Below, piece by piece: positions 31,601 to 62,281 of a stretch of 64,000 bases of DNA. Position 1 is the stretch's first letter, and each line of letters begins with the position of its first letter. The DNA is from an uncultured Candidatus Babeliaceae bacterium (GTDB lineage Bacteria; Babelota; Babeliae; Babelales; Babelaceae), in contig OY969927.1 in NCBI GenBank assembly GCA_963704655.1, positions 292,222-356,221 on the forward strand. The letters are read 5' to 3'. The notes under the pieces are model-generated. The model was not told the origin of the DNA, did no database searches, and saw only the letters and a list, made by a program, of their open reading frames with translations. Made by a program: the position numbers and the translations under genes.

Positions 31601-34600
31601 TAACCACCAACAACTGTGGCGTAATCATCTGTAGCATTGTGGTTTTGGCCACCGCCTATAAATGAGCTGTTTCCTGCAGCCTTATTGTTAAAACCACCAA
31701 CGACAATTCCATAGGTATTTGATGCGGTGTTGGCAGATCCGCCAACAACTGTGGCGAAAGTATTTGAAGCACTATTTCCTTCGCCGCCCACAATAACAGC
31801 TTGGTCGCCTGTTGTATTGGAGTTGCCGATGCCACCGCCAATAAATGAGCTATTACCTGCAGCGTTATTGCCAAAACCACCAACAACAACTCCGTAGGTA
31901 TTAGAAGCAGTGTTGCTTTGGCCACCAAGTATAGCAGCGTTAGTATTTGATGCGTGGTTATACTGTCCACCGCCAACAACAGCATAATTACCAGATGCTG
32001 TATTTTCATAACCGCCAGTTACCGATGAGTAATCACCTGAAGCAGTGTGGTGTTCACCATTACCGACAAATGAGCTATTTCCTGTAGAGTTATTATAACT
32101 GCCACCAACAACAATTCCATAGGAATTTGATGCAGTGTTATTTTGTCCACCAAGTATAGCAGCGTAACTATTTGATGCGGTGTTGCTTTGTCCGCCTGCA
32201 ATAACAGCGTAAGAACCGGATGCAACATCAGACCCGCTTGCATTAATTTGTAAATCAACAGCATATGTTCCGCGTGTGTTACCACTTGCAGATGCTTGTA
32301 ATGCGCGAGAACCTTGCGGAGCTACTGTAAGTGCTGAAATGCTACCACAGATTTGTCCTGCAGGTGAAAGGGTAGGGTCATTTACTGTTAAACATCCATC
32401 TGCTGTTATGTTGTATGCGGCAAAGCTGCCTGTATTGTCCCGTAACACAAGTGTGTTTGGAATATCTGCGCTTGTTGCGGTGTAAATCCAATTTAATTCT
32501 GTTGAATTAGTTACCGTTGTTATCCAGCCAAGCTGTTCTGTTTTTCCTGGTCCTGAAACGACCCCAAGAACTTGATACAATCCAGGGGCAGCGTTAGTTG
32601 GCAATATTAATGTGTACGTATTAGTTAGATTTCCAGCGGTTAATGACACTGAACCAGCGCCTGTTGAGCCTTGGAAAACTTGATATCCTGTTACGGTAAT
32701 ATTTGTTGCCGCAAAGCTTCCCGTACTATCGCGTTCTACTATTGTTCCTTGAATATCAAGTGGTGTTGCATTATAAACACCGTTATAAGCAAACTCAAAG
32801 TTTTGATAGTCAATGCCAGAAATTAAACCAACGCTGGTTGTGCCAATTAAGTTACCTGCGTAGGGAATGTTCAATTCATGTGTTCCAGGTTCAATGTCAT
32901 TCCATACAACAAGTGTTAAATTACCGGTATTTGTAGTTAAAAATTGTTCTGGTGCTGTTAAGCCATTAAGACTTTCAATGCCACCTGTTAATGTTGCAAC
33001 CCAGCTTAATTGCCCAGAGCCGTTATTAAACAATGCTTGATTTGGTCCAGTAGCCTGTGCTGCTGGCAATATTAATGTGTACGTATTAGTTAGATTTCCA
33101 GCGGTTAATGACACTGAACCAGCGCCTGTTGAGCCTTGGAAAACTTGATATCCTGTTACGGTGATATTGGTTGCTGCGAAGCTTCCCGTACTATCGCGTT
33201 CTACTATTGTTCCTTGAATATCAAGTGGTGTTGCATTATAAACACCGTTATAAGCAAACTCAAAGTTTTGATAGTCAATGCCAGAAATTAAACCAACGCT
33301 GGTTGTGCCAATTAAGTTACCTGCGTAGGGAATGTTCAATTCATGTGTTCCAGGCTCAATGTCATTCCATACAACAAGTGTTAAATTACCGGTATTTGTA
33401 GTTAAAAATTGTTCTGGTGCCGTTAAGCCATTAAGACTTTCAATGCCACCTGTTAATGTTGCAACCCAGCTTAATTGCCCAGAGCCGTTATTAAACAATG
33501 CTTGATTTGGTCCAGTAGCCTGTGCTGCTGGCAATATTAATGTGTACGTATTAGTTAGATTTCCAGCGGTTAATGACACTGAACCAGCGCCTGTTGAGCC
33601 TTCGAATACTTGATATCCTGTTACGGTGATATTGGTTGCTGCAAAGCTTCCAGTACTATCGCGTTCTACTATTGTTCCTTGAATATCAAGTGGTGTTGCA
33701 TTATAAACACCATTATAAGCAAACTCAAAGTTTTGATAATCTTCACCGGTGATTAAACCAACATGGTTATTGTCATCAGGTAAATTACCAGCATATGGGA
33801 TATCTAATTGATGTACGCCAGTTACTGCGTTATCAGTCCAACCAAAGAATGTTTCAGCTGTGTAGGTAGTTAAGAATTGATTTACAACAGTTACACTATT
33901 CAAGCTTTCAATTGCTGAACCAATAACAACGGTCTGCCATGAAAGATTACCGAACCCATCATTAATAAGTGTCTGACTTGAGTTACCCTGTGCTTGTGGA
34001 AGAGTTACACCATAACTTGTTGAAACTGTTGCTGGGCCAGTAATAGAGACAGTACCACTGTTATCTTTTGCTTCAAACGCTACCGTTGTTACCGTTACAG
34101 TTGTTGCTGCAAAGCTGCCGGTAGAATCGCGTAATACGAGTGTTAATGGAATATCTGCGCTTGTTGCAGACAGCACGGTTGAATAGGTTTGTGCAAGTGC
34201 GCATGCAGGAATGCCACAGACAAATGCAACGTGTGTTGCAGTTTGCGTGCCGATGACATCACCATATAATTGTCCGGTAAATGAAGTGGTAGTTATTGTC
34301 CCCACGCCAAGTTGCCCAAGTGAAGTTACTACAACAGGTGAACCGGTTACCGGTGTTCCATAAATACCAGCAACATATGCAGAAGTTTGTGTGCCTTGTG
34401 TGCCAATGCGAATGGTATTTTGGTCACCAGGTGCGCCACCACTGCTTATTAAAATATTATTACTTTCATTAGAAGTATAAGGATAACCAGCATTTAAGCC
34501 CAATGCAATATTATTAACACCTGTTAATACATTACCTAATGCAGAGTGACCAAGTGCAAGGTTTTGTCCACCAACATCTTTAGCAAGTGCGCCGTTACCC

Positions 34601-47154: not shown

Positions 47155-47230
47155 TTTGTTGCAAATTTTTTTTTCATGTGCAAGTATCTCTACTGATCTG
47201 ACTAAAATTTTTAAATGGGATATTTGTAGT

Positions 47231-48418
47231 ATGAAGCTTCTCCAAAATATCGTTCTAGTCTGCTTATTTTCTACGGCACATGCTCAAATGCAGCAGGTTA
47301 ATTTTTTAGAACCGCTTCATGATAATGATGGTGCGTTGCAAGACATTACTCGTGCATGCAGTCAGATTTCGTCATCTTATACGTTGTTATTGCCCGCAAG
47401 CCAGGGTGAGCCCTATCAGGTTCTTGGGTTGATTGATGATATGGGAACACTTTCTTGGATCACCACGGTTACTGATGCAAGTCAGCTCAATTTATTATAC
47501 ACCGCAACTTCAGCAGACATTCCCTTAACGCTTGTTTTACGTGACAGTACTGGTTCATTTGCCGCAACTAATATTACACTTACGGGAAATTTAACGCTTG
47601 CAACTCTTACAGGTGTGTTGGTTGCACAAGATGGTTTGGTCTCTGCAACAATTGGCATAGATGGAACACGTCTAGCATCGTTTCCGTTAACAGACGTCCC
47701 CGCTGTTAATTTTTTTCAACCGGTTGAACCATCACGAGAATCATATTTCTTTGATGATTTTATTGCATTTAATGCATCGGCTGGTGGCGTTTTTTATGGT
47801 GATACACCATGGGTTATTTCTAACAATTCTTACCCATCACGCGTTACGTCGTTAAAAAACACCAGCAGCTCTGTTGGTGTTACTCGCCTTTCAACGGGCA
47901 ATATGCAAGATAGTTTGAACTATCTTATTAAGCAAATAAATGCAGACGGTACCAGTAATGGTGTTGGATTTGGCCTTGGTCCCTGCTTGAATGAATGGCG
48001 CGTATCAATTCCTGGTTCAACTCTTTCTTTGGCAAACAGTTTTACAGTATGTTGTGGCATGGGCGATAATTTGGGAACCGCACCTTACGTGCCACAAAAT
48101 GGTATTTATTTTTCATACACAAATACGGGTTCTGGGGCTGTATGGCAAATTAACACAGCTTTTGGTGGAACAATAACGCAAAATACAAGTCCAGCTGTAA
48201 CTCCACTGGCTGGGGTGTTCCAGAGGCTTGCATATGTTGTTGATGCAAGTAGCTCACAGGTAGATTTTTTTATTGATGATCTTTACGTTGGCACACTTTA
48301 TAACATTCCTAGTGGTAATGATTGTTCAGCATTTGCATCGATACGAACAGGAGGTTCTTCAGGCTCGATTGACTTAGATTATTGGTATTATCATTATACT
48401 TTTAATCTGCGGCGTTAA
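47231..48418 (+). CDS. minimal fibre protein (395 aa): signal peptide, one address motif, one LRDSTGSFAAT collar, shared C-terminal head domain
   Basis: The ATG at 47231 gives MKLLQNIVLVCLFSTAHA. Motifs are SYTLLLPASQGEPYQVLGLIDDMGTLSW and TSADIPLTLVLRDSTGSFAATNITLTG. The C-terminal 254 aa is homologous to the ends of the 48450 and 56816 products. Confidence 0.82.
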   Translation: MKLLQNIVLVCLFSTAHAQMQQVNFLEPLHDNDGALQDITRACSQISSSYTLLLPASQGEPYQVLGLIDDMGTLSWITTVTDASQLNLLYTATSADIPLTLVLRDSTGSFAATNITLTGNLTLATLTGVLVAQDGLVSATIGIDGTRLASFPLTDVPAVNFFQPVEPSRESYFFDDFIAFNASAGGVFYGDTPWVISNNSYPSRVTSLKNTSSSVGVTRLSTGNMQDSLNYLIKQINADGTSNGVGFGLGPCLNEWRVSIPGSTLSLANSFTVCCGMGDNLGTAPYVPQNGIYFSYTNTGSGAVWQINTAFGGTITQNTSPAVTPLAGVFQRLAYVVDASSSQVDFFIDDLYVGTLYNIPSGNDCSAFASIRTGGSSGSIDLDYWYYHYTFNLRR

Positions 48419-48449
48419 TATAATAAAACTAAAAAAAAAGGGTTTTGTA

Positions 48450-51179
48450 ATGAGTAATAGATTATTTATTTTTGCAGTATTTTTGATCAGTTTATTTGTT
48501 CCGATATATGCGGAAATAACAAGTGTAGATGAAGCGCTTAAGGTTGTGGGTTTTCTTGATGCGCTTGAAGAAAATTATAAAGATGCATTTAAAGAAAAAA
48601 ATATACGCTATGCATTGGAAGATTTATTAGCTTTTTATGAAAATTCAAATGAATTTACTCCAGAACAACGTGCAGGACTATTTAATAAATTATATCGCTA
48701 TTTCCAGCTGGTTGAAAAATTTGATGCTGAAAATGGCTCTGCAACAAAGTTTTTAAATTCAGATCAAAGTTTAGTAACCTACTGGACACAAATGGTAGCT
48801 GCTACTCATACTATACTTGATACGAATAATAGTTCTACGAGTAATGCATTAAATTTAATTGCGCCAATTTCTGGTGGATTTAACTACACCTATACGTTGC
48901 AAATGCCGGTTAACCAGGGATCTTTTGGACAAGTTTTGTCAACTGATGGTAACAACCCTGCGCAACTTTCTTGGCTTACTACTATAACTGCAGATGTAAG
49001 TCTTATTTACTCTGCAACAAGTTGTGATAATGTAAATACCATAGTATTACGTGATAATAATGGCAGTTTTGTAGCAACAAATATCGCGCTGATGGGCAAT
49101 ACAAATAACAGCTTAATAAATTATAGTACAACTTCATGTGGTCCGGGTACGTCGATGTTGAGTATTCCTGGAACACAAAATATATTCTTAGGCACATCCG
49201 TTGGCAATTCAGCTGTATCGGGCCCAGGTAACGTAGCAGTTGGTAATACAACACTCAATGCTATAACTTCAGGCTCTGGTAACACTGCTATTGGTGTTAA
49301 TGCATTAGCTGCAGTAGTGACAGGCTCTAATAATACTGCAGTTGGTTATGGCGCTAACGTAACTGGCGCAAATGCTCTGAATCAGACAGCAGTTGGTGCC
49401 GGCGCAGTTGCACCATTTAATAACAGCGTGGTATTAGGTAACGCTGCTGTAACCAATGTGGTCCCTATGGCAAGCGGTGTTACAAGTCTTGGTGGTGCAA
49501 GTAATATTTGGTCAACCCTCAATACCTATTCAACTAATTACTATGATAGATCAGGTGATGTAGTTACTATTGCAGCAACGCCAGGTGGAACAGGAACTTA
49601 TACAATGTATTGGCCAACTTCTGTAGGTCAAGCAGGGTATGTGCTTGAAGCAACCACCAGTAGTAGTCCGCAACAGCTTAATTGGATTCCTATTACCGCA
49701 TTGCTGAGCGGTACCTATTGTGATTTCCCAAGCACCTACGTGCAGCGCGATCCAAATGGTAAATTTGCAGCAACAACGATTACGTTAACGGGTGTATCGT
49801 TACTTAACTACAGCACTCTTGGTGGTTGTGACCTCGGTAACCCATTCTTGAGCGTTCCAGGAACAAACAACTTGTTCTTAGGCACTTCTGCTGGTAAACA
49901 AACAGTATCAGGCAGTGCCAACGTTGCTGTGGGTAACCAAGCATTAACAAGCATTAGTACTGGTACGTCTAATACTGCAATTGGTTATAATGCTCTTGCT
50001 GCAGCAGCTGCCGGCTATAATAATGCTGCATTGGGTTATTATGCATTAGCTATTGCTACCGGAAATAATAACGTTGCAGTAGGTTATAATGCCGGTTCAG
50101 CAAGTACCGGATCTAATAATATCTATGTTGGTACAGGAGTAACCGGAAATTCTGGTGATGCCAGTGTTATCAGTATCGGTATTCAAAATGCTGGAACAAG
50201 TGGCACCTATATGGGTGGTATTTATAATACTACGCCTACAGGATTAAACTCTCTTGTAGGTATTACCAGCAGTGGTCAACTTGGTGTTGCAACGTCAGCA
50301 ACTATTACCACACTTACGGTATCAGGAAGTCTTACTGTTGATAATCTTAATGGTGCAGTTATTGCAACTAACGGGTTATTAACAGCGACTATTGGTATTG
50401 ACGGCACACGCCTTGCATCATTTATATTAACCGATACACCTGCAGTAAGCTTCTTCCAACCGGTTGAGCCATCACGTGAATCATACTTCTTTGATGACTT
50501 TATGGCATTTAATTCTACTGCTGGCGACTTGTTCTATGGTGATACACAATGGGTAATTGGTAATAATACTGCCGGACGTGTTACGGCAATTGCACCGCTT
50601 GCATCTAATGGCGCAATTGGTGTGACTCGTTTAACATCTGGCGCTGCTGTAAATAACAGTAATTATATTACCAAACAGCTTACGGGCACAACGTCATTAA
50701 GCTTGTCGCTAGGATATGGCCCATGCTTGAATGAATGGCGTGTTTCTGTTCCAGCAACTTCAAGCGGAACAAATAGTTTCTATACTCGTGTTGGCTTTGG
50801 AGATAGTCCTGCTGCTACAGCAGTAAACCCAACAGGTGCGCCAAGTAATGGTATTTACTTCCAATGCCTTGATAGCATCAACAGTGGTTCATGGACGGTT
50901 AATACCGCAAGTAATGGAAGCAGAACATCGGCAAATACAGCAGTTGCTCCTACTCCAGGCGTATTCCAACGATTGAGTTTTCAAGTTAATGGAAATGCAT
51001 CAAGTGTTACGTTCTACATAAATGATGTTTCGGTAGGAACTATTACGACAACGATACCAACAATAGCCAATGGTAACTATTGTTCACCATATGCGTCTGT
51101 GGTGCGAAATGCTGGTACTGGAGGATCTCTTGATCTTGATTATTGGTATTTCCATTATACCTTTAATTCACGACGTTAA
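48450..51179 (+). CDS. fibre protein (909 aa) with two short beta-roll modules and the shared C-terminal head domain
   Basis: Signal peptide MSNRLFIFAVFLISLFVPIYA plus an N-terminal helical domain. Motifs are YTYTLQMPVNQGSFGQVLSTDGNNPAQLSW, TSCDNVNTIVLRDNNGSFVAT and YCDFPSTYVQRDPNGKFAATTITLTG. The protein ends LDLDYWYFHYTFNSRR. Confidence 0.88.
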   Translation: MSNRLFIFAVFLISLFVPIYAEITSVDEALKVVGFLDALEENYKDAFKEKNIRYALEDLLAFYENSNEFTPEQRAGLFNKLYRYFQLVEKFDAENGSATKFLNSDQSLVTYWTQMVAATHTILDTNNSSTSNALNLIAPISGGFNYTYTLQMPVNQGSFGQVLSTDGNNPAQLSWLTTITADVSLIYSATSCDNVNTIVLRDNNGSFVATNIALMGNTNNSLINYSTTSCGPGTSMLSIPGTQNIFLGTSVGNSAVSGPGNVAVGNTTLNAITSGSGNTAIGVNALAAVVTGSNNTAVGYGANVTGANALNQTAVGAGAVAPFNNSVVLGNAAVTNVVPMASGVTSLGGASNIWSTLNTYSTNYYDRSGDVVTIAATPGGTGTYTMYWPTSVGQAGYVLEATTSSSPQQLNWIPITALLSGTYCDFPSTYVQRDPNGKFAATTITLTGVSLLNYSTLGGCDLGNPFLSVPGTNNLFLGTSAGKQTVSGSANVAVGNQALTSISTGTSNTAIGYNALAAAAAGYNNAALGYYALAIATGNNNVAVGYNAGSASTGSNNIYVGTGVTGNSGDASVISIGIQNAGTSGTYMGGIYNTTPTGLNSLVGITSSGQLGVATSATITTLTVSGSLTVDNLNGAVIATNGLLTATIGIDGTRLASFILTDTPAVSFFQPVEPSRESYFFDDFMAFNSTAGDLFYGDTQWVIGNNTAGRVTAIAPLASNGAIGVTRLTSGAAVNNSNYITKQLTGTTSLSLSLGYGPCLNEWRVSVPATSSGTNSFYTRVGFGDSPAATAVNPTGAPSNGIYFQCLDSINSGSWTVNTASNGSRTSANTAVAPTPGVFQRLSFQVNGNASSVTFYINDVSVGTITTTIPTIANGNYCSPYASVVRNAGTGGSLDLDYWYFHYTFNSRR

Positions 51180-51206
51180 TAAGTAGATAAAAAAAAGGGT
51201 AAAAAG

Positions 51207-54200
51207 ATGAAAATAAACATACTAGTTTTCACATTAACGTTAGTAACATTTTTGCCATTTTATGCTGCCATAAACAGTTTAAAAGAAGCACGAATTGTTT
51301 CGCGGTATCTTGGTGTTATTAAACAACATGACACTATCCTTTTTTCAGACCCTTTGGTGATTCAGACGGTAAACGATCTTATTGATTTTTGTGAAAATAA
51401 TAATCAATTAAGTGAACAAGAAAAATTGGAGTTTGTAACGAAATTAGAAGAGTTTATTTTGTTGGTCCCCGCTGATAGCAGTGGGGATCAACAGATCGGA
51501 GATCAATTGGTGGGGAAAGCAAACCCGCTGTCTGTTAATGGGCAGACATTGGTTGCTTATTGGAGTCAAATTTTTAGCTCGACAGAATTTTTATTTGATA
51601 GCACAGGGAACAACACCGTAGCATTATCTGCTCCATTGGTGTTAAATGATAGTTATACTTTACAATTTCCTGTATCAGAAGGTTCTGCTTATCAAGTGCT
51701 GGGAACATTGGGTGGCAATCCCGCACAACTTGCTTGGCTTACTACTGTTACTAATACGAGTCAATTAAATTTACTGAATACCGCAACAAATTGTGATGTT
51801 GCAAATACATTAGTATTGCGTGATACAACTGGCAGCTTTGCAGCAACAACAATCACGTTAACCGGCAATAGTTTAATTAATTTCAGTACTGTTGGTGGCT
51901 GCGATATCGGACAAGGCTTTGTCTTTGCGCCAACACATCAAAATACCATTATCGGCCTAAATGCAGGAAATAATAACACCCTTACCGGCACAAGTAATGT
52001 TGCATTAGGTTATAATGCGCTAGCAGCGAACATTATTGGACATGACAATATCGCATTAGGTACCAATGCGCTTGCAAATAACACCACCAACCTATCTACT
52101 GCTGTAGGCTCAGGAACTTTACAAAGTAATGTTTCTGGTAGCCAAAATACTGCTGTTGGATATTATGCATTGAATAAAGTTGTTGCCAATGGTAACAATA
52201 CCGCAGTTGGATATTACGCCCTTTTGAATAATACTAATAACCAGCTTACCGCTGTTGGTGCTGGTGCATTACAAACGAATGTCAACGGCTCAGCAAATGT
52301 TGCAGTTGGCTATAACGCATTGAATCAAAATAACGGAGCAAACAATACGGGTCTTGGTTTTCAGGCAGCGCAGGGAACAACTGCTGCAGGTAATATTGTT
52401 GCAGTAGGTGCAAATGCTTTTGCAGCAGGCGTTGCTACTGGTGCACAAACGGTTGCAGTTGGCTCAGCTGCGATGCAGAATGCAAAACCAGCTTTGGGTG
52501 CAGATATTGCCATAGGTTATCAAGCATTGCAGAATGATAATCAAGGGCTCAATGTTGCAGTTGGTACATCGAGCATGACCACTAATAATACCGGCGCTTA
52601 TAACACTGCTGTTGGAATATCAACATTGCAAAACAATGGTAGTGGGATTCAAAATACTGCTATCGGATATTATGCACTTCAAGCAAATACAACGGGAACA
52701 TCAAACATTGCATTAGGCTACCAAGCACTTGCAAATGCAAACACCATAAATAACTTTGATAATATTGCAATTGGAGCATTTACGCTTACTGGAACTGCGG
52801 TATTGGGTGATAATATTGCGGTGGGGGTCAATGCGCTTTCTGCGCCTGGCTATAACCAAGGTCAGCAGATAGCAATTGGAACAAATGCATTACAACTTAA
52901 TACAACTGGAACGGCAAATATTGCAATCGGTTACGAAGTGCTTGATGCAAACACGGCTGGTTCATCAAACGTTGGGCTTGGGTATCAAGCTTTAGGTACT
53001 AATGTTAGTGGTAATGATAATACAGCTGTTGGAACATTAGCTCTTTTCAATAACACAACAAATCAGATCACCGCGGTTGGTTCTGGTGCACTACAAAATA
53101 ATACTACTGGTATTCAAAATACTGCAATTGGTTATAAAGCGCTTAATGCTAATACCACAGGGACATCAAATGTTGCTATCGGATATAAAGCGTTACAGAC
53201 AAATACTATTGGTGATGATAATATTGCTATAGGTTATAACGCATTAAACACCTTCAATTCTGCTATTGGAAAAAATATAGCTATTGGTTCGCTAGCATTG
53301 CAAAGTTTAAATACTACCAATGCGCAGAGTGTTGCCATTGGTTATCAGTCAGGGCTAATTTCTACAGGTGCTAGCAATACTATTGTTGGTTCAAATGCGG
53401 CGACTGGTTTAACAACAGGCGGAAGTAGTGTTGTTATTGGTGCAACTGCCGGCGCAGGCACAACAGTAAGTAATAACGTTGTTGTTGGCGCAGGCGCAGG
53501 AAACCAGACATTAACGGGTGCAACTAACGTTGTTGTAGGGCAGGGTTCCGGAACTGGATTAACTTCTGGCGCAAGTAATACCATTTTAGGACAAGCTGCC
53601 GGAACCGGTTTAACGTCAGGTGGAAGCAGTGTTGTTATAGGCGCAACTGCAGGTGCAGGTACAACAGTAAGTAATAACGTTGTTGTTGGCGCAGGCGCAG
53701 GAAACCAGACATTAACGGGTGCAACTAACGTTGTTGTAGGGCAGGGTTCCGGAACTGGATTAACTTCTGGCGCAAGTAATACCATTTTAGGACAAGCTGC
53801 CGGAACCGGTTTAACGTCAGGTGGAAGCAGTGTTGTTATAGGCGCAACTGCAGGTGCAGGTACAACAGTAAGTAATAACGTGGTTGTTGGTGCTGGTGCG
53901 GGAAACCAGACATTAACCGGCGCTAGCAATGTTATTGTTGGTCAGGGAACAGCTACGGGATTAACTTCAGGTGGAAGCAATATTATTATTGGTCAAGGAA
54001 ACACGGGCGGTACATTAACTACAGGAGCTAATAATATTATTATTAGTACCGGCAATAATGCTACGTACCCAATCGCTAATGGTTCGAATGGTATCATTAT
54101 AGGCTTTGGAACAACTTCTACAACAGCCTGTTGGATCGATGGGATTCTGCCTTTTGCCGCTGGCGCAAATACTGTACGTATAACTGCTGCTGGCAGATTG

Positions 54201-56816
54201 GGTACAGCTGCTTCGTCTGCACGTTATAAAACTAATATAAAACCGATGACAAGTGAGTCTTCAAATATATATCAGTTAAGTCCTGTTTCATTTACGTTTA
54301 TTCCAAGTATTGATCCAACACAAACAACCTACTATGGTTTAATAGCCGAAAATACTGTTGGTCTTTACCCAAGTTTAGTTGTTACAGATACAGCAGGTCT
54401 TCCTTGGGCGATTAACTATGATTTATTGTCACCGATAGTTTTAAATGAAACACTTAAGCTTAACGCCTTTGTGCCGATAACATTAAATTATACAAGTACG
54501 CAAAATACGGTTATTGGTAAAAATGCGTTGCAGGCAATTACTACTGGTTCGGGTAACACTGTTTTTGGTTATCAAGCGGGGAATTCGATCACAACAGGAT
54601 ACGGTAACACACTTCTTGGCATGGGTGCAGATGTAGCTTCTGGTAACCTGGTAAATGCGACAGCAATTGGTGCTGGTGCAAAGGCCACTAATAATAATAC
54701 TATTGTCTTAGGAAATTCAAATGTTGTTGCTGTAGTACCCGGTTCAACTAATGCTACGCTTGGTGCGCCTGGGCAGATGTGGTCATCTATTATGACAACA
54801 CAATTGACTTCTGCTGGCAGTTTAACATCGCCTACAATTACGTTAACAAGTAATCCATTAATGTATTATTATGATGGCATAACCACGTGGACTATGTTGT
54901 CAGCGCCTGGAACACAAAATACTTTCTTAGGGCAAAGTGCGGGTAATTTATCGGTGACAGGAGCACGTAATGCTGCCTTTGGTTATCAGGCTGCAAAATC
55001 AAACATAACATCAAGTGATAATGTGGCTGTTGGGGTGAATGCATTGGCAACATATAATGGTGCAGGTGGTCAACATGTTGCAATAGGATCAGGTTCTATG
55101 CAAAATGCGACTCCTACCGGACAGTCTGATATTGCAATCGGATATAATACGTTGCAAAAAGATAATGGTCAAGGATCTAATATTGCCATTGGTAACTCAG
55201 CAATGCAGAATGCTACGCCTATAAATGGTCAAGATATTGCAATTGGGTTACTTACATTACCAAGTGATACCATAGGATTTAATATCGCAATCGGTAACAG
55301 TAGTATGACTAATAATACAACTGGTGTTAATAACGTTGCTCTGGGAATTTCTTCATTACAAACTAATACTTCTGGATCGTATAACGTCGCTATCGGTAAT
55401 AGCGCATTATTTGGAAACGCTGCCAATGCTGCAAAAAATGTAAGTAATAACGTTGCTGTTGGGTATCAAAGTTTGTATAACAATCGCGCAAATAATTTAA
55501 CGGCAATTGGTTATTATGCGCTTGGCTCAAATACAACCGGTATTCAAAATACGGCACTTGGTTATTACGCACTTGGCCTGAATACAACCGGCACATCAAA
55601 TATCGCTATCGGTTATCAAGCTTTAGCAAATGCAAACACTATCAATAATTTTGATAATATCGCCATTGGTATAAATACGCTTTCTGGAGCAGGTGTCTTA
55701 GGTGATAATATCGCCATTGGTGCAAATGCGCTTTCTGCATCTGGGTATAGTCAAGGCCAGCAGATTGCTGTTGGCACAAACGCATTGCAAGTTAATACAA
55801 CAGGGACAGCAAATATAGCAATTGGTTATGGGGTGCTTGATGCAAACACGGTTGGGTCGTCGAACGTGGGGCTTGGGTACCAAGCATTAACTACTAATGT
55901 TAGCGGTAATGACAATACTGCAGTTGGAACGAATGCTTTACAGTTTACGACAACATGGCGTTTAACTGCCGTTGGTTCTGGCGCATTACAATATAATACG
56001 ACTGGTTTTCAAAATACCGCCGTTGGCTATCAGGCGCTTAATGCAAATACAACCGGCACATCGAATGTTGCTATTGGTTACCAAGCTCTTTTAACAAATA
56101 CAGGAAGCAGTAGCAATATCGCCATTGGTGCCAATACATTAACAAGATTTAGCAGTGCTTCTAATTTTGGTGGCAATAATACAGCAGTGGGTATCAATGC
56201 GTTAGTTTCACTCATTACGGGAACTGGCAATACAGTTTTGGGCTACAACGCTGGATCAAACTTAACAACTGGTAGTGGAAATATTTATGTCGGTGCATTT
56301 GTTGCCGCAGCAACAACTAACGAGAGCAACACAATACGTATTGGAAGTGTTGGCGGTGCAGGAACAGCAGCTTGCTATATTCAAGGAATTAATGGTAAAA
56401 CAGTTCTTCCTGTAGCTGGTGCGGGCACTGTTAGTGTAAGTACGACTGGACAGCTTGGTACTACCGTTTCATCACGACGTTTTAAGAAAAATATTCAAGA
56501 TATGGGTCTAATCACTGAAGATTTGTATAAATTACGTCCTGTAACATTTAATTATAAAGTTGATGAGGCTGAAGAGCATTTAGAATATGGTCTAATCGCT
56601 GAGGAAGTTGATGAGGTTTATCCAGGGATTATTATTAGGGATGATTATGGAGCGCCATTTTCGGTTCAATACCAATTTCTTCCTATGATGATGCTTAATG
56701 AATTGCAAAAAGATCGTGCACGTATTGTGGTATTAGAAGATAAAATTGTAAGATTGGAACAACAGATTAGCAAGCTTTTGAATAATAGTGAACGACTTTC
56801 AGTAAAGGATGTGTGA
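51207..56816 (+). CDS. double fibre protein (1869 aa) with an internal and a C-terminal Peptidase_S74-like domain
   Basis: Signal peptide MKINILVFTLTLVTFLPFYA. Module 1 ends ..RITAAGRLGTAASSARYKTNIKPM... A second beta-roll module follows. The C-terminus is VSSRRFKKNIQDM..GLIAEEVDEVYPG..MMLNELQKD. Confidence 0.9.
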   Translation: MKINILVFTLTLVTFLPFYAAINSLKEARIVSRYLGVIKQHDTILFSDPLVIQTVNDLIDFCENNNQLSEQEKLEFVTKLEEFILLVPADSSGDQQIGDQLVGKANPLSVNGQTLVAYWSQIFSSTEFLFDSTGNNTVALSAPLVLNDSYTLQFPVSEGSAYQVLGTLGGNPAQLAWLTTVTNTSQLNLLNTATNCDVANTLVLRDTTGSFAATTITLTGNSLINFSTVGGCDIGQGFVFAPTHQNTIIGLNAGNNNTLTGTSNVALGYNALAANIIGHDNIALGTNALANNTTNLSTAVGSGTLQSNVSGSQNTAVGYYALNKVVANGNNTAVGYYALLNNTNNQLTAVGAGALQTNVNGSANVAVGYNALNQNNGANNTGLGFQAAQGTTAAGNIVAVGANAFAAGVATGAQTVAVGSAAMQNAKPALGADIAIGYQALQNDNQGLNVAVGTSSMTTNNTGAYNTAVGISTLQNNGSGIQNTAIGYYALQANTTGTSNIALGYQALANANTINNFDNIAIGAFTLTGTAVLGDNIAVGVNALSAPGYNQGQQIAIGTNALQLNTTGTANIAIGYEVLDANTAGSSNVGLGYQALGTNVSGNDNTAVGTLALFNNTTNQITAVGSGALQNNTTGIQNTAIGYKALNANTTGTSNVAIGYKALQTNTIGDDNIAIGYNALNTFNSAIGKNIAIGSLALQSLNTTNAQSVAIGYQSGLISTGASNTIVGSNAATGLTTGGSSVVIGATAGAGTTVSNNVVVGAGAGNQTLTGATNVVVGQGSGTGLTSGASNTILGQAAGTGLTSGGSSVVIGATAGAGTTVSNNVVVGAGAGNQTLTGATNVVVGQGSGTGLTSGASNTILGQAAGTGLTSGGSSVVIGATAGAGTTVSNNVVVGAGAGNQTLTGASNVIVGQGTATGLTSGGSNIIIGQGNTGGTLTTGANNIIISTGNNATYPIANGSNGIIIGFGTTSTTACWIDGILPFAAGANTVRITAAGRLGTAASSARYKTNIKPMTSESSNIYQLSPVSFTFIPSIDPTQTTYYGLIAENTVGLYPSLVVTDTAGLPWAINYDLLSPIVLNETLKLNAFVPITLNYTSTQNTVIGKNALQAITTGSGNTVFGYQAGNSITTGYGNTLLGMGADVASGNLVNATAIGAGAKATNNNTIVLGNSNVVAVVPGSTNATLGAPGQMWSSIMTTQLTSAGSLTSPTITLTSNPLMYYYDGITTWTMLSAPGTQNTFLGQSAGNLSVTGARNAAFGYQAAKSNITSSDNVAVGVNALATYNGAGGQHVAIGSGSMQNATPTGQSDIAIGYNTLQKDNGQGSNIAIGNSAMQNATPINGQDIAIGLLTLPSDTIGFNIAIGNSSMTNNTTGVNNVALGISSLQTNTSGSYNVAIGNSALFGNAANAAKNVSNNVAVGYQSLYNNRANNLTAIGYYALGSNTTGIQNTALGYYALGLNTTGTSNIAIGYQALANANTINNFDNIAIGINTLSGAGVLGDNIAIGANALSASGYSQGQQIAVGTNALQVNTTGTANIAIGYGVLDANTVGSSNVGLGYQALTTNVSGNDNTAVGTNALQFTTTWRLTAVGSGALQYNTTGFQNTAVGYQALNANTTGTSNVAIGYQALLTNTGSSSNIAIGANTLTRFSSASNFGGNNTAVGINALVSLITGTGNTVLGYNAGSNLTTGSGNIYVGAFVAAATTNESNTIRIGSVGGAGTAACYIQGINGKTVLPVAGAGTVSVSTTGQLGTTVSSRRFKKNIQDMGLITEDLYKLRPVTFNYKVDEAEEHLEYGLIAEEVDEVYPGIIIRDDYGAPFSVQYQFLPMMMLNELQKDRARIVVLEDKIVRLEQQISKLLNNSERLSVKDV
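53367..53969 (+). repeat. three tandem in-frame copies of a 201-bp (67-aa) unit
   Basis: Copies start at 53367, 53568 and 53769. The unit is GASNTI.G...TGLT.GGSSVVIGATAGAGTTVSNNVVVGAGAGNQTLTGA.NV.VGQG..TGLTS. Copies 2 and 3 are almost identical at nucleotide level. Confidence 0.92.
54213..54470 (+). other. internal Peptidase_S74-like domain
   Basis: S-S-A-R-Y-K-T-N-I places Ser aa 1003 at 0 and Lys aa 1008 at +5. It continues ..IYQLSPVSFTF..YYGLIAENTVGLYPSLVV..INYDLLSPIVLNETLKLN. Confidence 0.7.
56469..56813 (+). other. C-terminal Peptidase_S74-like chaperone domain
   Basis: SSRRFKKNIQDMGLITEDLYKLRPVTFNY..EYGLIAEEVDEVYPGIIIRD..QYQFLPMMMLNELQKDRA plus a coiled coil. Confidence 0.8.
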
Positions 56817-59800
56817 TGAAAAGAAAGATGTTATTTTTTTATACTATATTTTTGACGTTAAGTGCCTTAACAACGCTTAACGCAGTTCAAGATAAAGTTG
56901 TTTTGGTTGATAACAATACATTATCTCAGCTAGATATGCATAGATGGTATAATGAAAATATACATCAGCTAGAATCTGTTCCTGCACAAGCGTATGTTCA
57001 TCATAAGATTTTTAAACTGACACATGATAAAGATTCTGAATACATTTTTATATACGGAAATAAAAAATTCGTGTCACGACAAGAAGCACAATTAGATGCG
57101 GGTGATTGTTGTTTAGGGCAACTGCCTGGCGCAACGCTGATCGCAGATTTTCTTGTGCATAATCAAGATCTTTTTGTCCGTAATGCGCAAAAAGTTTCAC
57201 ACCGTGCCGGTCAATTTATTTGGGATCGACTTACTCCTGGATTACCTTTATTGTTAGATTCAAATTTAGATGTTGTTACACAAAACGTTGATATAGCAAG
57301 TCAAACAAGCGGTGCTGTGGCAATAGCATTAGGTGGCACCAATTCAACTTCGCCATTACAGAACAATTGTCTTATGGAATCAGTTGGTGGACAAATAGTT
57401 GAAGCTCCGGCGTTACAAAATGGACAGATTTTTATTGGTGCAACAGGCATGTCGCCAAGTCCTGCAACTATTTCTGGAACAGCTTCTCAAATTAATATAA
57501 CAAATGGCCCTGGATCTATAACACTTTCAACACCACAAAATATCGATTTACTGTCAACGCCGACATTTGTGGGTATTCAGTTTCAACCTAGTGGTTCATC
57601 TAATTATGTTACTCTTCAGGCACCTGCAACAGTAAGTTCAACGTATTCAGTAAGCCTACCAGGCTCTGCGCCAACTGCAGGTCAAGTATTACAGGCAACA
57701 TCTACATCAACAACTCAGTGGGGGAATGTGAGTGACGCGCTTACTTTATATGTTGCTGTCAATGGAAATGATAGCACGGGAAATGGCTCATTAACAGCAC
57801 CTTTTGCAAGCTTAAAGCGGGCACTAGCCGTCGCTAATGCTATTGCATCAGAATATACACCAGTTAAAATCTCAGTGGGGCCTGGTATATTTGTGGAAGA
57901 CACTTCTTCTGGCCCATTAATAATTAATCCTGTAAGTGGTAGTGGTTATATCAACATTGTGGGAACATCAAGTCAAACAACTCTCTTTACTTCTTATACC
58001 CCAACACAAACGTTTATCTATATGCCAGCAAATGGCCGGCTTTCTGATTTGGCAATTTTTGGTATATATGAAGCGCCCGCAGTGTGCGCAGATGGCACTG
58101 GTAATAATTCTGCCTTTATTAACGCTGTTGCAGTTGGTTGCCAGCAGGGTTTTCTTTTTCAAGGTGGTATAACAACTAACTACTATTTACAAGGAGTTGC
58201 TACCGAAAGTTGCGGTGTTGGTGTGCTAGTTGATGATGCTCGCGTGTTGATGTATAACTCAAGTTTTGATGGGGCACTTGAAACAACAATTATTCCTGCA
58301 AATACGGGGGTTATTGTAACAGGTCCGGCAGGGCGTATGGTTGCAGAGTCATGCGCATTTTTATATTGCGGCCTTTGTGGATTGGTAGAAAATCAAGGGA
58401 ACGCTACATTTATAGGCGGCTCGTTTATTAGTTCAACAAGTGGTGTTCAGGCAGCAAGTCAGTCAACGTGTATTGTTAATGGTTCAACATTTTATAGTAA
58501 TACCGCAACGAATATGATCGCTCGAGATTTGGGGACAACTTTGCAGTCAACTGCATGTAATGTTGATGGTAATAGTTTAAATAATCTTCCGCAAGGAACG
58601 GGTCTTTTGGTTACCACCAGTGCTCAGGCTAATATTGCAGTTGCGTCGTTAACTAATTTAATAAATGGTATTATCATTGGTCAAGATGGTGATGATAGCA
58701 CAACGCAGGTTCTTTCAGTTGGAGTAACTATCGATAATTGTGCAGGATCACAAATTATTCAAAATGGGCTTGCGCAATTAACGTATGTTGATGGTGCTCT
58801 TAATAGGAACTTTATAACTATTTCAAATCCTACAAATGTTACCTTTAATACCACGGATGCTTCAAGCGGGCAGGCAACGATTATTGGTCAGCATAGTGAT
58901 GTTGATCAAGATTTGATTCTTGTTGATACTGGGGTTGCGCAGATGCCAGGGTTAGTTTATCAATCAAATTATATGGATTGTAAGGGTATAATTTATCAAA
59001 ATACTAATCCTGCTTTTTCAACCATGCTTGGGGTGCAGGGACAAAACTCTGGCGCAACACTTTCTGCAGTTACTGCTTCAAATGCACAACCTGCAAAAGT
59101 CATGTTATTTTCAAACTCCGGTGCTTTTGGCGGAATGAGTAATATGCGCGGTTGGTTGTTGAATAAAAACGCAACAAACGCTCAATTGGCAGGTGAATTT
59201 TATAATAATGATCTTGATGGTAAACCTGCTATAGATCAATATACAAGTTTTCAATTTGACGGTTTTAATAATATTTTGCAATTCCCGGCAGTAACCACAA
59301 CAAATTTACCAACCAATACCGTGGCACAATTACAATGGGCGGGAGATACGAATCTTTACCGTGCACAAGCAGGTGTGTTACAGACAGATAATAACTTTGC
59401 CATTCAAGGTCTTGCCACCGCAAATAGTGCATTATATGTAGATGGTAATAAGCAGGTTGCTGCAAGTGTTACCTCTTCAAGTGATTTAGCACAACTTGCA
59501 GGAATAACCGGTGGTCCTATTCAGCCGCAACTTAATAATAAAGTTTCAAAGGCTGGCGATGTTATGACCGGCGTGTTAACTATTCCAGATGGCACCGTTG
59601 CAAGACCGGCACTTAGTTTTAATGGTTTTCCTAATACTGGATTAGCGATTATAGGTAACGTTTTTACCTTAATGACTTCAGGCAGTTCACGCTTAACAGT
59701 AGATGCTAACGGTGTTGTGGGTATTAATAGCTCGAATGTTTCAACGGTGTTGAACGTAGGCGGTGATGTATCTGTAGTGGGTGATCTTACGGTGACTAAC

Positions 59801-62281
59801 ACCTTAACTACCAATTGGTTAACTATTCAAAATAGTCCAGTTTTCTCAACAGATGGCGCCAATAAAGCTTATGTCGATGGGGTTGCTCAGGGATTACATG
59901 TTGCAGCGCCATGCACTGCACTTGGAGATTCAAATATCAGTTTGCTCTCTGGCGCCATAACTATTGACGGTGTATCACTTGTTGTTGGCAATCGTGTATT
60001 GCTTATTGGGCAAACAAGCTCAGTTGAAAATGGTATTTGGGTTGTACAATCTGGTTCATGGACACGACCAGTAGATTTTGCAACTGGAAATAGTGCGCAA
60101 GCAATTTATGCATTTATACAATCTGGGTCAACATATGGTGACACCGCATATTTTTGTACTACATTAGACCCGAATGCGGTAATTGATACTGACGCACTTA
60201 CCTTTGTGCAGTTCGGTAATGTTCAGGATGTTACAGGTCAAAACTTAGGAAGTGGAGCGTCAGTATTTGCTCAAAAATATGGACAAACGTTACAATTTAA
60301 ATCACTTGATGCAGGGCAAAATATCTTTATATCTTCTTCTGATACCGATATTACGATAGATCTTCCATCTGCATTAAATATCTCTGGTAAAATAACTGCC
60401 GGCACTGATATTAAGGGCGCAAGTATTAGTGATGGTATTGCGCTATTAACCAGTGGTAATTTGAATCTAAATAATCTTATTTCAACGGCTACGGTTACAA
60501 GTTCTGATGGATCGGCTGCGTATCCAAGTTTTAATTTTGCATCATCGCCACAGACAGGAATTTCTGCACAGACGCCTGACACATTAGTATTATCAACAGC
60601 GGGAGTTAACAACTTGCAAATTAATTCTTCAGGAATTATTCAAATTCCCGCGTTTACATCACCAGGAATTGTGCATAACGATGCTTCAGGAAATCTTTCT
60701 TCGTCATTAATAACCAGTGCCGATATATCAGCAACTGCCGGTATAGCAGATACGCAACTTGGTATTATTCATACTGCGGGTAAAGTTGCTAATAGCGCTA
60801 CAACAGCAACAAATAATAATAATCAAAATACTATTGTCATGCGCGACATGAATGGTAACTTTTCTGCAGGCGCGGTGAGCGCCTCTTTGCAAGCACCGAG
60901 TGGTTCAGTAACTTCGCCATCGGTGGCTTTTGCAAATTCACTTAATGCAGGCTTATCATCGCCCGTTGCAGGCCAGCTGAGCATAAGTGCAGGTGGTGCA
61001 GAATTATTACAATTGCAAGCGGGTGGAAATATCTATGTTCCTGGTTTTGTTTCAAATAATGGGGTGGTAAAATCAACATCGGGTATATTAAGCTCCGCGC
61101 CGTTATATGATGCGGATATCGCAGTTGGCGCTTCTATACAAGATACAAAATTAGCAACCATACAAAGTGCTAATAAAGTTGCAAATAGCGCAACTTCTGC
61201 AACATCGGCTAATAGTGCTAATACTATTGTCGCACGTGATGGATCTGGTAACTTTGTTGCAAATACAGCAACATTTGTTGCAACAAATAATCATCTTGTA
61301 TTGGGCAGTGGTAATACGGTTACCATTAATGCTGCCACTCCTGCAGTTTCACGTACGTATACAGTTCCAGACACCGGTACATCAACTTCTACGTTTATGA
61401 TGGTTGATGGCGCACAAACTATGAATGGTCCACTTACCTGTAATCAACTTTCTGTGACGCCGGGTAGCTTTACGGTGGGTTCACAAACCGGGGTTGTTAC
61501 GGCAAATAGCGGTCTTTATGGTGCATCGGTTGGAAATGCTGGTCAACGTCTTGCAACATTTGGCAGCACACCAACTGTTGGGTGGTACAAGTCAATTGAG
61601 CCATCACGCGAGTCATTATTCTTTGATGATTTTACTGGCCCGCTGTTTGATACGCAGTGGTATGCTGGCGGATCGATTGGTAGTGTAACAGCACCAAGTG
61701 CTTCTGCAACGGGCATGGAGATTGGCGTTATTCAACTTGGCACGGCTGGCGCACCAGATGGTTCTACGGTAATTAATAAACAACTTAATGGCACTGTGCT
61801 TGGCAATGGAACATGTTATGTTGAATGGCGCGTTGCAGTGCCAACATTATCAACAAGTAATCAGCAGTTTACCTTCAGATGTGGTCTTGGTGATAGCAGT
61901 GTTGGCAACGGTGTTCCGCAGGCAAATCCAACAACGGGTATTTGGTTTGAACATAGCGGTACTAATATTTCACCTACATGGATCATTAATTGTGCATCTG
62001 CAGGAAACACTACTTCCATTCCTACTACGCAGGTTATTGCTCAGGGTGTCTATTATCGATTAGGACTTTTAGTAGATGCTGCTGCTGATTCGGTATCATA
62101 CTATATTAATGACGTGCTTGTTGGGGTTAGTTCTGGAACGAATCCAATTACTACAAATATTCCGACTACGGTACAACCTGTTGGTTTATTTGCGCATCTT
62201 ATTAAATCATCAGGAACAACGGCGCGTACGGCAAACTTGGATTATGCAATGTACCAGTATGTTTATACGAGCCAACGATAG
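56816..62281 (+). CDS. fibre/tailspike-like protein (1821 aa): signal peptide, right-handed beta-helix-like region, tail-fibre repeats, shared C-terminal head domain
   Basis: The ATG at 56816 overlaps the upstream TGA by 1 nt. The N-terminus is MKRKMLFFYTIFLTLSALTTLNA. LYVAVNGNDSTGNGSLTAPFASLKRALAVA is a DUF1565/pectate-lyase-type start. Fibre repeats are GKVANSATTATNNNNQNTIVMRDMNGNFSAG and NKVANSATSATSANSANTIVARDGSGNFVAN. The protein ends LDYAMYQYVYTSQR. Confidence 0.88.
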   Translation: MKRKMLFFYTIFLTLSALTTLNAVQDKVVLVDNNTLSQLDMHRWYNENIHQLESVPAQAYVHHKIFKLTHDKDSEYIFIYGNKKFVSRQEAQLDAGDCCLGQLPGATLIADFLVHNQDLFVRNAQKVSHRAGQFIWDRLTPGLPLLLDSNLDVVTQNVDIASQTSGAVAIALGGTNSTSPLQNNCLMESVGGQIVEAPALQNGQIFIGATGMSPSPATISGTASQINITNGPGSITLSTPQNIDLLSTPTFVGIQFQPSGSSNYVTLQAPATVSSTYSVSLPGSAPTAGQVLQATSTSTTQWGNVSDALTLYVAVNGNDSTGNGSLTAPFASLKRALAVANAIASEYTPVKISVGPGIFVEDTSSGPLIINPVSGSGYINIVGTSSQTTLFTSYTPTQTFIYMPANGRLSDLAIFGIYEAPAVCADGTGNNSAFINAVAVGCQQGFLFQGGITTNYYLQGVATESCGVGVLVDDARVLMYNSSFDGALETTIIPANTGVIVTGPAGRMVAESCAFLYCGLCGLVENQGNATFIGGSFISSTSGVQAASQSTCIVNGSTFYSNTATNMIARDLGTTLQSTACNVDGNSLNNLPQGTGLLVTTSAQANIAVASLTNLINGIIIGQDGDDSTTQVLSVGVTIDNCAGSQIIQNGLAQLTYVDGALNRNFITISNPTNVTFNTTDASSGQATIIGQHSDVDQDLILVDTGVAQMPGLVYQSNYMDCKGIIYQNTNPAFSTMLGVQGQNSGATLSAVTASNAQPAKVMLFSNSGAFGGMSNMRGWLLNKNATNAQLAGEFYNNDLDGKPAIDQYTSFQFDGFNNILQFPAVTTTNLPTNTVAQLQWAGDTNLYRAQAGVLQTDNNFAIQGLATANSALYVDGNKQVAASVTSSSDLAQLAGITGGPIQPQLNNKVSKAGDVMTGVLTIPDGTVARPALSFNGFPNTGLAIIGNVFTLMTSGSSRLTVDANGVVGINSSNVSTVLNVGGDVSVVGDLTVTNTLTTNWLTIQNSPVFSTDGANKAYVDGVAQGLHVAAPCTALGDSNISLLSGAITIDGVSLVVGNRVLLIGQTSSVENGIWVVQSGSWTRPVDFATGNSAQAIYAFIQSGSTYGDTAYFCTTLDPNAVIDTDALTFVQFGNVQDVTGQNLGSGASVFAQKYGQTLQFKSLDAGQNIFISSSDTDITIDLPSALNISGKITAGTDIKGASISDGIALLTSGNLNLNNLISTATVTSSDGSAAYPSFNFASSPQTGISAQTPDTLVLSTAGVNNLQINSSGIIQIPAFTSPGIVHNDASGNLSSSLITSADISATAGIADTQLGIIHTAGKVANSATTATNNNNQNTIVMRDMNGNFSAGAVSASLQAPSGSVTSPSVAFANSLNAGLSSPVAGQLSISAGGAELLQLQAGGNIYVPGFVSNNGVVKSTSGILSSAPLYDADIAVGASIQDTKLATIQSANKVANSATSATSANSANTIVARDGSGNFVANTATFVATNNHLVLGSGNTVTINAATPAVSRTYTVPDTGTSTSTFMMVDGAQTMNGPLTCNQLSVTPGSFTVGSQTGVVTANSGLYGASVGNAGQRLATFGSTPTVGWYKSIEPSRESLFFDDFTGPLFDTQWYAGGSIGSVTAPSASATGMEIGVIQLGTAGAPDGSTVINKQLNGTVLGNGTCYVEWRVAVPTLSTSNQQFTFRCGLGDSSVGNGVPQANPTTGIWFEHSGTNISPTWIINCASAGNTTSIPTTQVIAQGVYYRLGLLVDAAADSVSYYINDVLVGVSSGTNPITTNIPTTVQPVGLFAHLIKSSGTTARTANLDYAMYQYVYTSQR
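57740..58860 (+). other. predicted right-handed parallel beta-helix (pectin-lyase-fold) region
   Basis: The entry motif YVAVNGNDSTGNGS..PF.SL..AL is followed by ~350 aa of irregular G/N/T/V-rich ~22-25-aa turns, such as VGCQQGFLFQGG, CGVGVLVDDARV and NTGVIVTGPAG. Boundaries are approximate. Confidence 0.5.

Follow-up and report, generated by a model that had tools for sequence, protein, structure and literature searches.

An internal S74 domain without its trimerising coiled coil is fused to a second fibre module in a Babeliaceae protein

In textbooks, the S74 domain is a chaperone at the C-terminus of phage fibres that is discarded after use. Here we analyse a protein of 1869 amino acids (aa) that carries two such domains, one at its C-terminus and one inside the chain. 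It is encoded in a stretch of 64,000 nucleotides (nt), hereafter the window, from an uncultured Candidatus Babeliaceae bacterium (contig OY969927.1, positions 292,222 to 356,221 of the forward strand). The Dependentiae, to which this organism belongs, are a lineage of the amoeba-parasite type that, according to the literature, parasitises protists and which, to our knowledge, is almost unstudied experimentally.

The only characterised internal S74 domain, studied both experimentally and structurally, is the ICA domain of the animal protein MYRF (myelin regulatory factor), which cleaves itself between P586 and S587 using S587 and K592 (PMC3742443, PMC3742440, PMC8326128) and whose internal cut is the key regulatory step there. 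Its existence corrects the initial annotation of this DNA, made from the letters alone, which was not aware of any characterised internal S74 domain. The main trimerising element of the MYRF domain is the alpha4 coiled coil (N670-K705), and single mutations of L685, L692, I696 or L699 within it block both trimerisation and cleavage (PMC8326128). Among the phage proteins, T5 pb1 is cut between T1263 and S1264 (PMC4690869). In published S74 work, replacement of either the Ser or the Lys by Ala abolishes cleavage, yet the Ser-to-Ala MYRF and T5 proteins were still produced and crystallised (PMC8326128, PMC4690869), indicating that the dyad serves cleavage and not the production of folded protein. 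In cellular bacteria, Bdellovibrio bacteriovorus possesses mosaic adhesive trimeric (MAT) fibres, with 13 S74-terminated and 8 non-S74 members, one of which, Bd3182, was shown experimentally to self-cleave at S782 and is thus a cellular bacterial fibre with a working S74 domain (PMC10769870). The S74 family is therefore already known, as are its use inside a protein (MYRF) and its occurrence on fibres of cellular bacteria (MAT); what is new in the window is an internal S74 copy without a coiled coil, fused to the next fibre module.

The gene is read in one uninterrupted frame, with neither a stop nor a start signal at the junction between the internal S74 domain and the module that follows it, and an identical gene is called on the ENA contig ERZ25039454:contig_14340 (1.307 Mb). 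Its parts, as given by the open reading frame (ORF) list, the translation, Pfam and the analyses below, are:

51207-56816, + strand: whole gene of the 1869-aa two-module fibre protein, starting with a signal-peptide-like segment and containing two each of beta-roll modules and S74 domains (ORF list, translation, Pfam)
51207-51971, + strand: N-terminal ~255 aa, with a putative signal-peptide-like leader, MKINILVFTLTLVTFLPFYAA, and a domain common to the paralogues
51894-54086, + strand: module 1, aa ~230-960, beta-roll repeats with the motif NTAxGxxAL in the translation and the direct-repeat families D1-D4
54087-54212, + strand: neck 1, aa 961-1002, reading IIIGFG..TTACWIDGI..VRITAAGRLGTAA and ending at the predicted scissile bond between A1002 and S1003
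54213-54470, + strand: internal truncated S74/ICA domain, aa 1003-1088, translating to SSARYKTNIKPM...LNETLKLNAF, with the Ser1003 codon at 54213-54215 and the Lys1008 codon at 54228-54230 (Pfam, alignment, AF2, Foldseek)
54459-54527, + strand: junction LNAFVPITLNYTSTQNTVIGKNA, aa 1085-1107, spanning the passage from the short alpha4 helix into module 2
54471-56348, + strand: module 2, aa 1089-1714, in which a short beta-roll with a connector precedes a further beta-roll that is paralogous to module 1
56349-56468, + strand: neck 2, aa 1715-1754, reading ..TAACYIQGI..VSVSTTGQLGTTV (translation, alignment with neck 1)
56469-56816, + strand: terminal complete S74 domain and coiled coil, aa 1755-1869, with Ser1755 and Lys1760 (Pfam), followed by the stop codon

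The stretch aa 1003-1088 is a genuine S74/ICA domain. PF13884 (Peptidase_S74) matched the 1869-aa protein in two stretches (E value 3.2e-20), an internal one at aa 1003-1058 and a terminal one starting at aa 1755. When scanned alone, the internal fragment scored 34.2 bits (E value 3.1e-8) over profile positions 1-57 of 58, against a gathering cut-off of 22 bits, with profile position 1 falling on S1003; the terminal copy (aa 1755-1869) scored 47.9 bits. A family alignment of 28 sequences was then used, in which the internal copy was placed beside the window's three terminal copies and 24 homologues. Its columns S19 and K24, both invariant, hold S1003 and K1008, and none of the 12 invariant and 12 near-invariant residues is missing from the internal copy. 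The neck that precedes it, in which IIIGFG..TTACWIDGI.. can be read directly, fits the family consensus IRIG...FIAGI...V.V...GQLGT..SS.R.K. A profile built from this alignment matched the solved S74 chains 6F45, 8JOV, 8HQZ (T5-type fibre), MYRF 7DC3 and GA-1 3GUD; its position 19 (S1003) aligned to Ser1 of the 3GUD chain and position 24 (K1008) to Lys6, and the same two residues also aligned to their counterparts in 8HQZ and 6F45. The 28-sequence profile was needed for this, since single-sequence searches of both S74 copies against the PDB sequences returned nothing useful. Hence the internal and terminal copies, the preceding neck and the catalytic residues proposed in the initial annotation all held, the last of them by the hidden Markov model alignment that it had named as a check. 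Because the published cuts in MYRF and T5 pb1 lie N-terminal of this Ser, the scissile bond is predicted between A1002 and S1003, where the Ser1003-Lys1008 dyad probably cuts. An upstream catalytic arginine such as that of endoNF and T5 was considered as well and discarded: the internal copy has Arg at -12 and -6, and since the terminal copies have none, this residue is not a feature of the family here.

The fold was modelled twice with AF2, in run 1 over aa 950-1200 with 87 aligned sequences and in run 2 over aa 900-1230 with the homologues trimmed just past the LNE motif. The core (aa ~990-1089) reached a pLDDT of 86-97, and both models contained the ICA elements in order (alpha1, beta1-beta2, alpha3, the beta3-beta4 hairpin and alpha4). 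Foldseek searches against the PDB retrieved, for both models, the MYRF ICA structure 7DC3 first (probability 1.0), then 3GUD (0.97-1.0) and then endoNF 3GW6. The TM-scores were modest (0.4-0.5, target-normalised), since the comparison set a monomer model against an intertwined trimer. In run 2 the last helix comprised only aa 1071-1086 (~16 residues) and was followed by short strands (pLDDT 62-78). Run 1 had given a last helix of ~44 residues (pLDDT 79 falling to 49), which was rejected as an artefact caused by the homologues' coiled coils in its alignment.

The internal copy thus does not possess the C-terminal trimeric coiled coil of ~35 residues that is found in the S74/ICA family. Only 8 residues separate its LNE motif from Pro1091, compared with 37, 43 and 45 helix-compatible residues past LNE in the window's three terminal copies; the 37 residues of the 1869-aa protein's own terminal copy contain neither Pro nor Gly. 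Beta-roll repeats can be read from ~aa 1095 onwards, so that the domain runs directly into the second beta-roll, as the initial annotation had described along with the missing coiled coil. The internal S74 is followed by 781 residues (aa 1089-1869), or 768 if counted from a longer match ending at aa 1101, and the extreme C-terminal placement of the phage type is seen for aa 1755-1869 and not for the internal copy. In other words, the catalytic and chaperone core is complete; all that the internal S74 has lost is the helix with which it could trimerise on its own, and a covalently attached second fibre module stands in the place of that helix. The MYRF residues L685, L692, I696 and L699 lie in the distal part of alpha4, exactly the portion absent here; a surrogate trimeriser would therefore be needed, and module 2, acting with the terminal coiled coil, is the part that most readily suggests itself for this role.

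Alignments of the two modules at both the protein and the DNA level indicated that the protein grew by module duplication. In a self-BLAST, aa 1202-1756 aligned to aa 207-823 with 48% identity (~85% in the core), and the DNA repeat D3 showed 77% nucleotide identity at an offset of 2895 nt. Much of the difference in length between the modules is due to three tandem 201-nt (67-aa) repeats in module 1 (53362-53997), the later copies of which are 89% and 76% identical to the first. Identity between the internal S74 and the terminal one is only ~35%, and the translation revealed no relic of a signal peptide or of the N-terminal domain between the modules or after the internal S74, so a simple recent fusion of two complete genes does not fit. 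The initial annotation had offered a fossil of a two-gene fusion as one possible reading; this is disfavoured by the retained residues, by the absence of a relic and by the purifying selection on the same truncated copy and junction in another organism described below, although the protein did arise by duplication of a module.

An exhaustive phmmer search of 1.84 billion representatives yielded 7085 matches. The best of them, P0121 (E value 6e-51), has the same truncated internal S74 and the same junction, LKLN[AT]FVPITLNYT[ST]TQNT[VI]IGKNA, with a short beta-roll and a complete terminal S74 downstream. Its cluster also includes P0392 (997 aa) and P0391, and the junction is found on three independent JGI contigs from another organism. 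The internal S74 is about 61-63% identical to the internal copy of this second organism and ~35% identical to the terminal copy of its own protein, which indicates that the truncated type is old and has been maintained either vertically or horizontally. Both truncated copies retain SS-x-R-[YF]-K. The nonsynonymous and synonymous divergences (dN and dS, Nei-Gojobori) of the S74 core between the two organisms were 0.29 and 1.51, a ratio of ~0.19, which is approximate because dS is near saturation and is as low as that of the N-terminal part of the 1869-aa protein. The best conserved stretch was the junction itself (aa 1085-1107), with 87% aa identity and a proportion of nonsynonymous differences (pN) of 0.057, against 35-65% identity in its flanks. 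Judged from these comparisons, the truncated internal S74 appears to be selectively maintained and not a decaying fossil.

A separate observation concerns the synonymous differences in the junction. Over its 23 codons (54459-54527) their proportion (pS) in the comparison with the second organism (locus L010) was 0.25, whereas the neighbouring S74 and neck segments gave 0.65-0.72, an unusually low value for the junction that could be due to chance on few codons, to a recombination patch or to constraint at the nucleotide level.

A census of non-terminal S74 domains was carried out on 270 fetched homologues. In 10 of them an S74 domain lay more than 150 residues from the C-terminus, and all ten also ended in a terminal S74. 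These proteins are tandem arrays of two or three units, each consisting of beta-roll, neck and S74; P0122 (NCBI HEY2713247.1, Chthoniobacterales) has three S74 domains, and P0123, P0124 and P0126 are other examples. Across the 12 multi-S74 proteins, that of the window included, both Ser and Lys were kept in 15 of the 16 non-terminal copies having the N-terminal motif, the exception being domain 1 of P0124, which has lost the Lys and the first Ser. From this retention we argue that non-terminal copies are generally catalytic. In most of the tandem proteins, the internal S74 keeps a long coiled coil of its own ahead of the next module. Only in the window protein, in the P0121/P0392 cluster and in P0128 does the helix stop early and pass directly into the following beta-roll; P0128 is an unrelated fragment in which ...MLLNEFLK is joined directly to VGNTADGAFAL.... 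The bacterial tandem fibre-plus-S74 class includes at least two lineages in which an internal S74 without its own trimerising helix would depend on the part downstream.

Viral proteins behaved differently. In 15 viral loci, all 18 S74 matches (in 17 ORFs) ended at most 75 aa from the end of the ORF, and 50,697 phage records contained only weak, terminal matches. The strictly C-terminal position that the initial annotation ascribed to the S74 domains of known tail fibres and endosialidases is thus true of phages and does not extend to cellular proteins. A homologue search with a 230-aa region found only single-S74 proteins of ~350-400 aa and failed to recover the query's own protein, and one with a two-sequence alignment of the junction gave just 13 candidates; the word index of this search evidently misses long repeat proteins, and the exhaustive search of representatives is the informative one. 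A profile search of genome contigs with the junction alignment detected no relative, and metagenome and viral scans produced only ordinary terminal S74 proteins with 27-46% identity. Tandem multi-S74 bacterial proteins are present in public databases and appear to be uncharacterised, our literature searches having found no paper on tandem or internal bacterial S74 domains.

Two members of the wider collection deserve mention for their own architecture. P0126, a protein of 7103 aa on ENA contigs of up to 944 kb, has three S74 domains ~2350 aa apart, each with Ser and Lys, and would be an extreme fibre polyprotein if processed. P0127 (880 aa, Logan assemblies), a high-GC bacterial protein, has two S74 domains, each followed by a hydrophobic transmembrane-like segment, and its second half opens with a signal-like segment of its own; possibly it has a MYRF-like topology of fibre, S74 and membrane anchor, or else consists of two fused gene calls.

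Compared with the described systems, the 1869-aa protein resembles MYRF in that the S74 domain is internal with more protein downstream, in the Ser-Lys dyad spaced by five residues, in the short beta3-beta4 hairpin and in having no upstream arginine at the position used by the phage enzymes; the MYRF ICA structure was, moreover, the best match of both AF2 models. It differs from MYRF in that alpha4, a coiled coil of 36 residues there, is here reduced to ~16 residues followed by a beta-roll. The NDT80-type DNA-binding domain that precedes the ICA domain in MYRF and the transmembrane segment that follows it are both missing here. PF13884 was the only family found in a Pfam scan, without the NDT80/PhoG, transmembrane and MRF C-terminal features of the MYRF family, and the protein is bacterial and apparently secreted. 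It is therefore MYRF-like in having an internal ICA domain, yet lies outside the MYRF family. With the phage chaperones endoNF of K1F (3GW6), T5 pb1 (4UW8) and GA-1/phi29 gp12 (3GUD) it shares the Pfam family, the catalytic motif and the placement of S74 after the neck or stalk of a beta-structured fibre, which is a trimer in phages and is assumed to be one here. The phage domains, however, are strictly C-terminal and discarded. The phage enzymes also use an Arg of the neighbouring chain 14 residues upstream (R897 in endoNF, R1250 in T5) that is absent from this position in both copies of our protein, and endoNF has a long tentacle hairpin, unlike the internal S74.

The closest characterised cellular parallel is provided by the MAT fibres of Bdellovibrio, which like the 1869-aa protein are cellular, long (~1000 aa or more) and equipped with a signal peptide (a putative one here), the MATs being trimeric (PMC10769870). 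Their division into S74 and non-S74 paralogues has its counterpart in the window, with three S74-terminated and two to three non-S74 proteins, the likeness being one of architecture. On the other hand, all 13 S74-type MATs are described as ending in S74, none having an internal or truncated copy (PMC10769870), and Bdellovibrio preys on bacteria whereas the Dependentiae parasitise protists. Features of trimeric autotransporter adhesins were not found, as YadA_head, Hep_Hag and YadA_anchor had no Pfam match in the 1869-aa protein; one JGI source does label a homologue 'trimeric autotransporter adhesin', which is a source name only. Scans against NCBIfam and PHROGs added nothing for this protein.

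Taking these results together, we regard the 1869-aa protein as a secreted trimeric two-module surface fibre whose internal S74 is functional, in line and probably cleaves between A1002 and S1003, an interpretation to which we assign a probability of about 0.5. The identity of the domain, its catalytic columns, fold, truncation, conservation and recurrence are established by the data above; the trimeric state of the protein, its export, order of folding and cleavage are what we infer, and could come about as follows. After Sec export, folding would begin at the terminal S74 coiled coil and move on through module 2, the folding of which would bring three internal S74 cores into register and so stand in for the missing coiled coil. 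The internal S74 would then template the neck and beta-roll of module 1, and the Ser1003-Lys1008 dyad would most likely cut between A1002 and S1003, with a second cut expected between V1754 and S1755 at the terminal S74. This would leave a fibre anchored by its N-terminus (aa ~24-1002), its tip now free, together with a second piece that is also a trimer (aa 1003-1754) and a chaperone that is discarded. A stricter form of this scheme, which we put forward only tentatively, is a relay-activated fibre polyprotein, in which the internal S74 would stay inactive until the downstream module, its folding nucleated by the terminal S74, is complete. Two different trimeric products would then arise in a fixed order, one a fibre anchored to the cell with its tip exposed by the cut, the other a second fibre that is set free with the S74 core as its base.

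Several points weigh against this interpretation. Cleavage between A1002 and S1003 is a prediction throughout, as is the trimeric state of the beta-rolls, which is assumed, and beyond the S74 core the two AF2 monomer models carry little confidence. The dyad is seen in just two sequences of the truncated type, and at 63% identity the probability that both Ser and Lys were kept by chance is not negligible; the third truncated example, P0128, ends ahead of the motif. A module 2 released by the cut would not carry the N-terminal domain shared by the paralogues. The internal copy also does not have the coiled coil that MYRF needs to trimerise and cleave, so that it could be catalytically silent. 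This last point leads to the main rival, namely that the internal S74 is a trimerisation or registration node, keeping the three chains aligned as a joint or hinge between the beta-roll modules of one long fibre, which never cuts. We hold that view to be possible, if doubtful. It would account for the absence of the distal alpha4 coiled coil and for the junction to module 2 being the most conserved stretch (87%), as expected of a permanent structural transition, and in an uncut product module 2 would stay joined to the N-terminal domain shared by the paralogues. Uncleaved C-terminal auto-chaperones are also known, for instance that of the P22 tailspike (as cited in PMC4690869). A joint of this kind does not explain, however, why Ser1003, Ser1004, Arg1006 and Lys1008 are retained in both truncated copies, when the dyad serves cleavage rather than the production of folded protein, nor why this copy is among the 15 of 16 non-terminal ones that keep it. 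Of these two readings, both of them raised in the initial annotation, we favour cleavage only moderately.

The two remaining explanations take the internal S74 to have no function or no real connection with what follows it. It might be a leftover, that is, a functionless relic of tandem duplication or gene fusion which has not yet decayed, and three observations are in line with this: the duplication of the modules is clear (aa 1202-1756 against aa 207-823, and 77% at the 2895-nt offset), decay does occur elsewhere, as in domain 1 of P0124, and the entire fibre cluster, which the closest metagenome-assembled genome lacks, has the look of a variable island (see below). We nevertheless consider a leftover unlikely, given that the internal copy is closer to that of the other organism (61-63%) than to its own terminal copy (~35%), that dN/dS is ~0.19 and as low as in the N-terminal domain, that all invariant columns are retained and that no relic of a signal peptide or N-terminal domain follows the internal S74. 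An artefact of assembly or gene calling that joined two separate fibre genes could be suspected in a repeat-rich gene taken from a single metagenome contig. It is highly improbable here: nothing interrupts the frame at the junction, where neither a stop nor a start signal occurs, and an assembly error in the window is ruled out by three independent JGI contigs of another organism, which show the same passage from S74 to beta-roll.

If the internal site of our two-module fibre does cut, it would offer a simple, genetically encoded route to several trimeric fibres from one gene, with cleavage coupled to the folding of the neighbouring module. This would be relevant to fibre engineering, to the evolution of MYRF-like processing and to host attachment by Dependentiae. 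Were the relay to operate as outlined, S74 would be serving bacterial surface fibres as a conditional switch for internal processing, a use not described before, possibly in the contact of an obligate parasite of protists with its host. If there is no cut, the S74 fold would be able to act as a permanent in-line trimer joint.

As for its genomic setting, SerRS, SecD, an ATP-dependent DNA ligase, MreC, RecJ and GatA were identified in the window, which is therefore part of a cellular chromosome, of Dependentiae/Babeliaceae type, and the S74 fibre is not encoded by a phage or prophage. The SerRS is 87% identical to a protein of 'Candidatus Babeliaceae bacterium', and many of the matches are named Dependentiae. 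The DNA ligase (17367-19136) is of the ATP-dependent, eukaryote/archaeal type and has all three Pfam domains. Six paralogous fibre-like proteins bearing signal peptides are encoded in these 64 kb of a genome of ~1.3 Mb, three of them terminated by S74 (1962, 4779 and 1869 aa) and the others by different tips. Besides the 1869-aa protein they are:

832-6720, + strand: 1962-aa paralogous fibre ending in S74 (PF13884 at aa 1843-1895)
22684-37023, - strand: 4779-aa paralogous fibre ending in S74 (PF13884 at aa 4657-4711)
47156-51179, + strand: two upstream paralogues without S74, of 420 aa (47156-48418) and 909 aa (48450-51179) (BLASTP among paralogues)
56816-62281, + strand: 1821-aa downstream paralogue without S74, sharing the C-terminal domain of the 909-aa protein

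By BLASTP, aa 1-255 of the 1869-aa protein are 37% identical to the 909-aa neighbour and aa 149-260 are 72% identical to the N-terminal part of the 4779-aa paralogue. The C-terminal domain common to the 909-aa and 1821-aa proteins (50400-51179 and 61500-62281) comprises ~260 aa with 40% identity and starts with VEPSRES.FFDDF; it had no match in Pfam, NCBIfam or PHROGs and is a candidate receptor-binding tip. The Chromulinavorax paper contains nothing on fibres. In the closest metagenome-assembled genome, also of Babeliaceae (RecJ 86% identical), the four-gene fibre cluster 47156-62281 is absent from the syntenic site, which lies after RecJ and an oxidoreductase (L012 11776-21719), and the large minus-strand fibre gene upstream is kept; the cluster thus looks like a variable island. 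Within it, the listed TTG start of the 420-aa ORF (47156-48418) is probably too far upstream, as a signal-peptide-like sequence, MKLLQNIVLVCLFSTAHA, begins at residue 26. Finally, the 1869-aa gene and the fibre gene after it overlap, the stop codon of the former sharing bases with the ATG of the latter (TGATG, 56814-56818), an arrangement that suggests co-transcription and translational coupling of the two.

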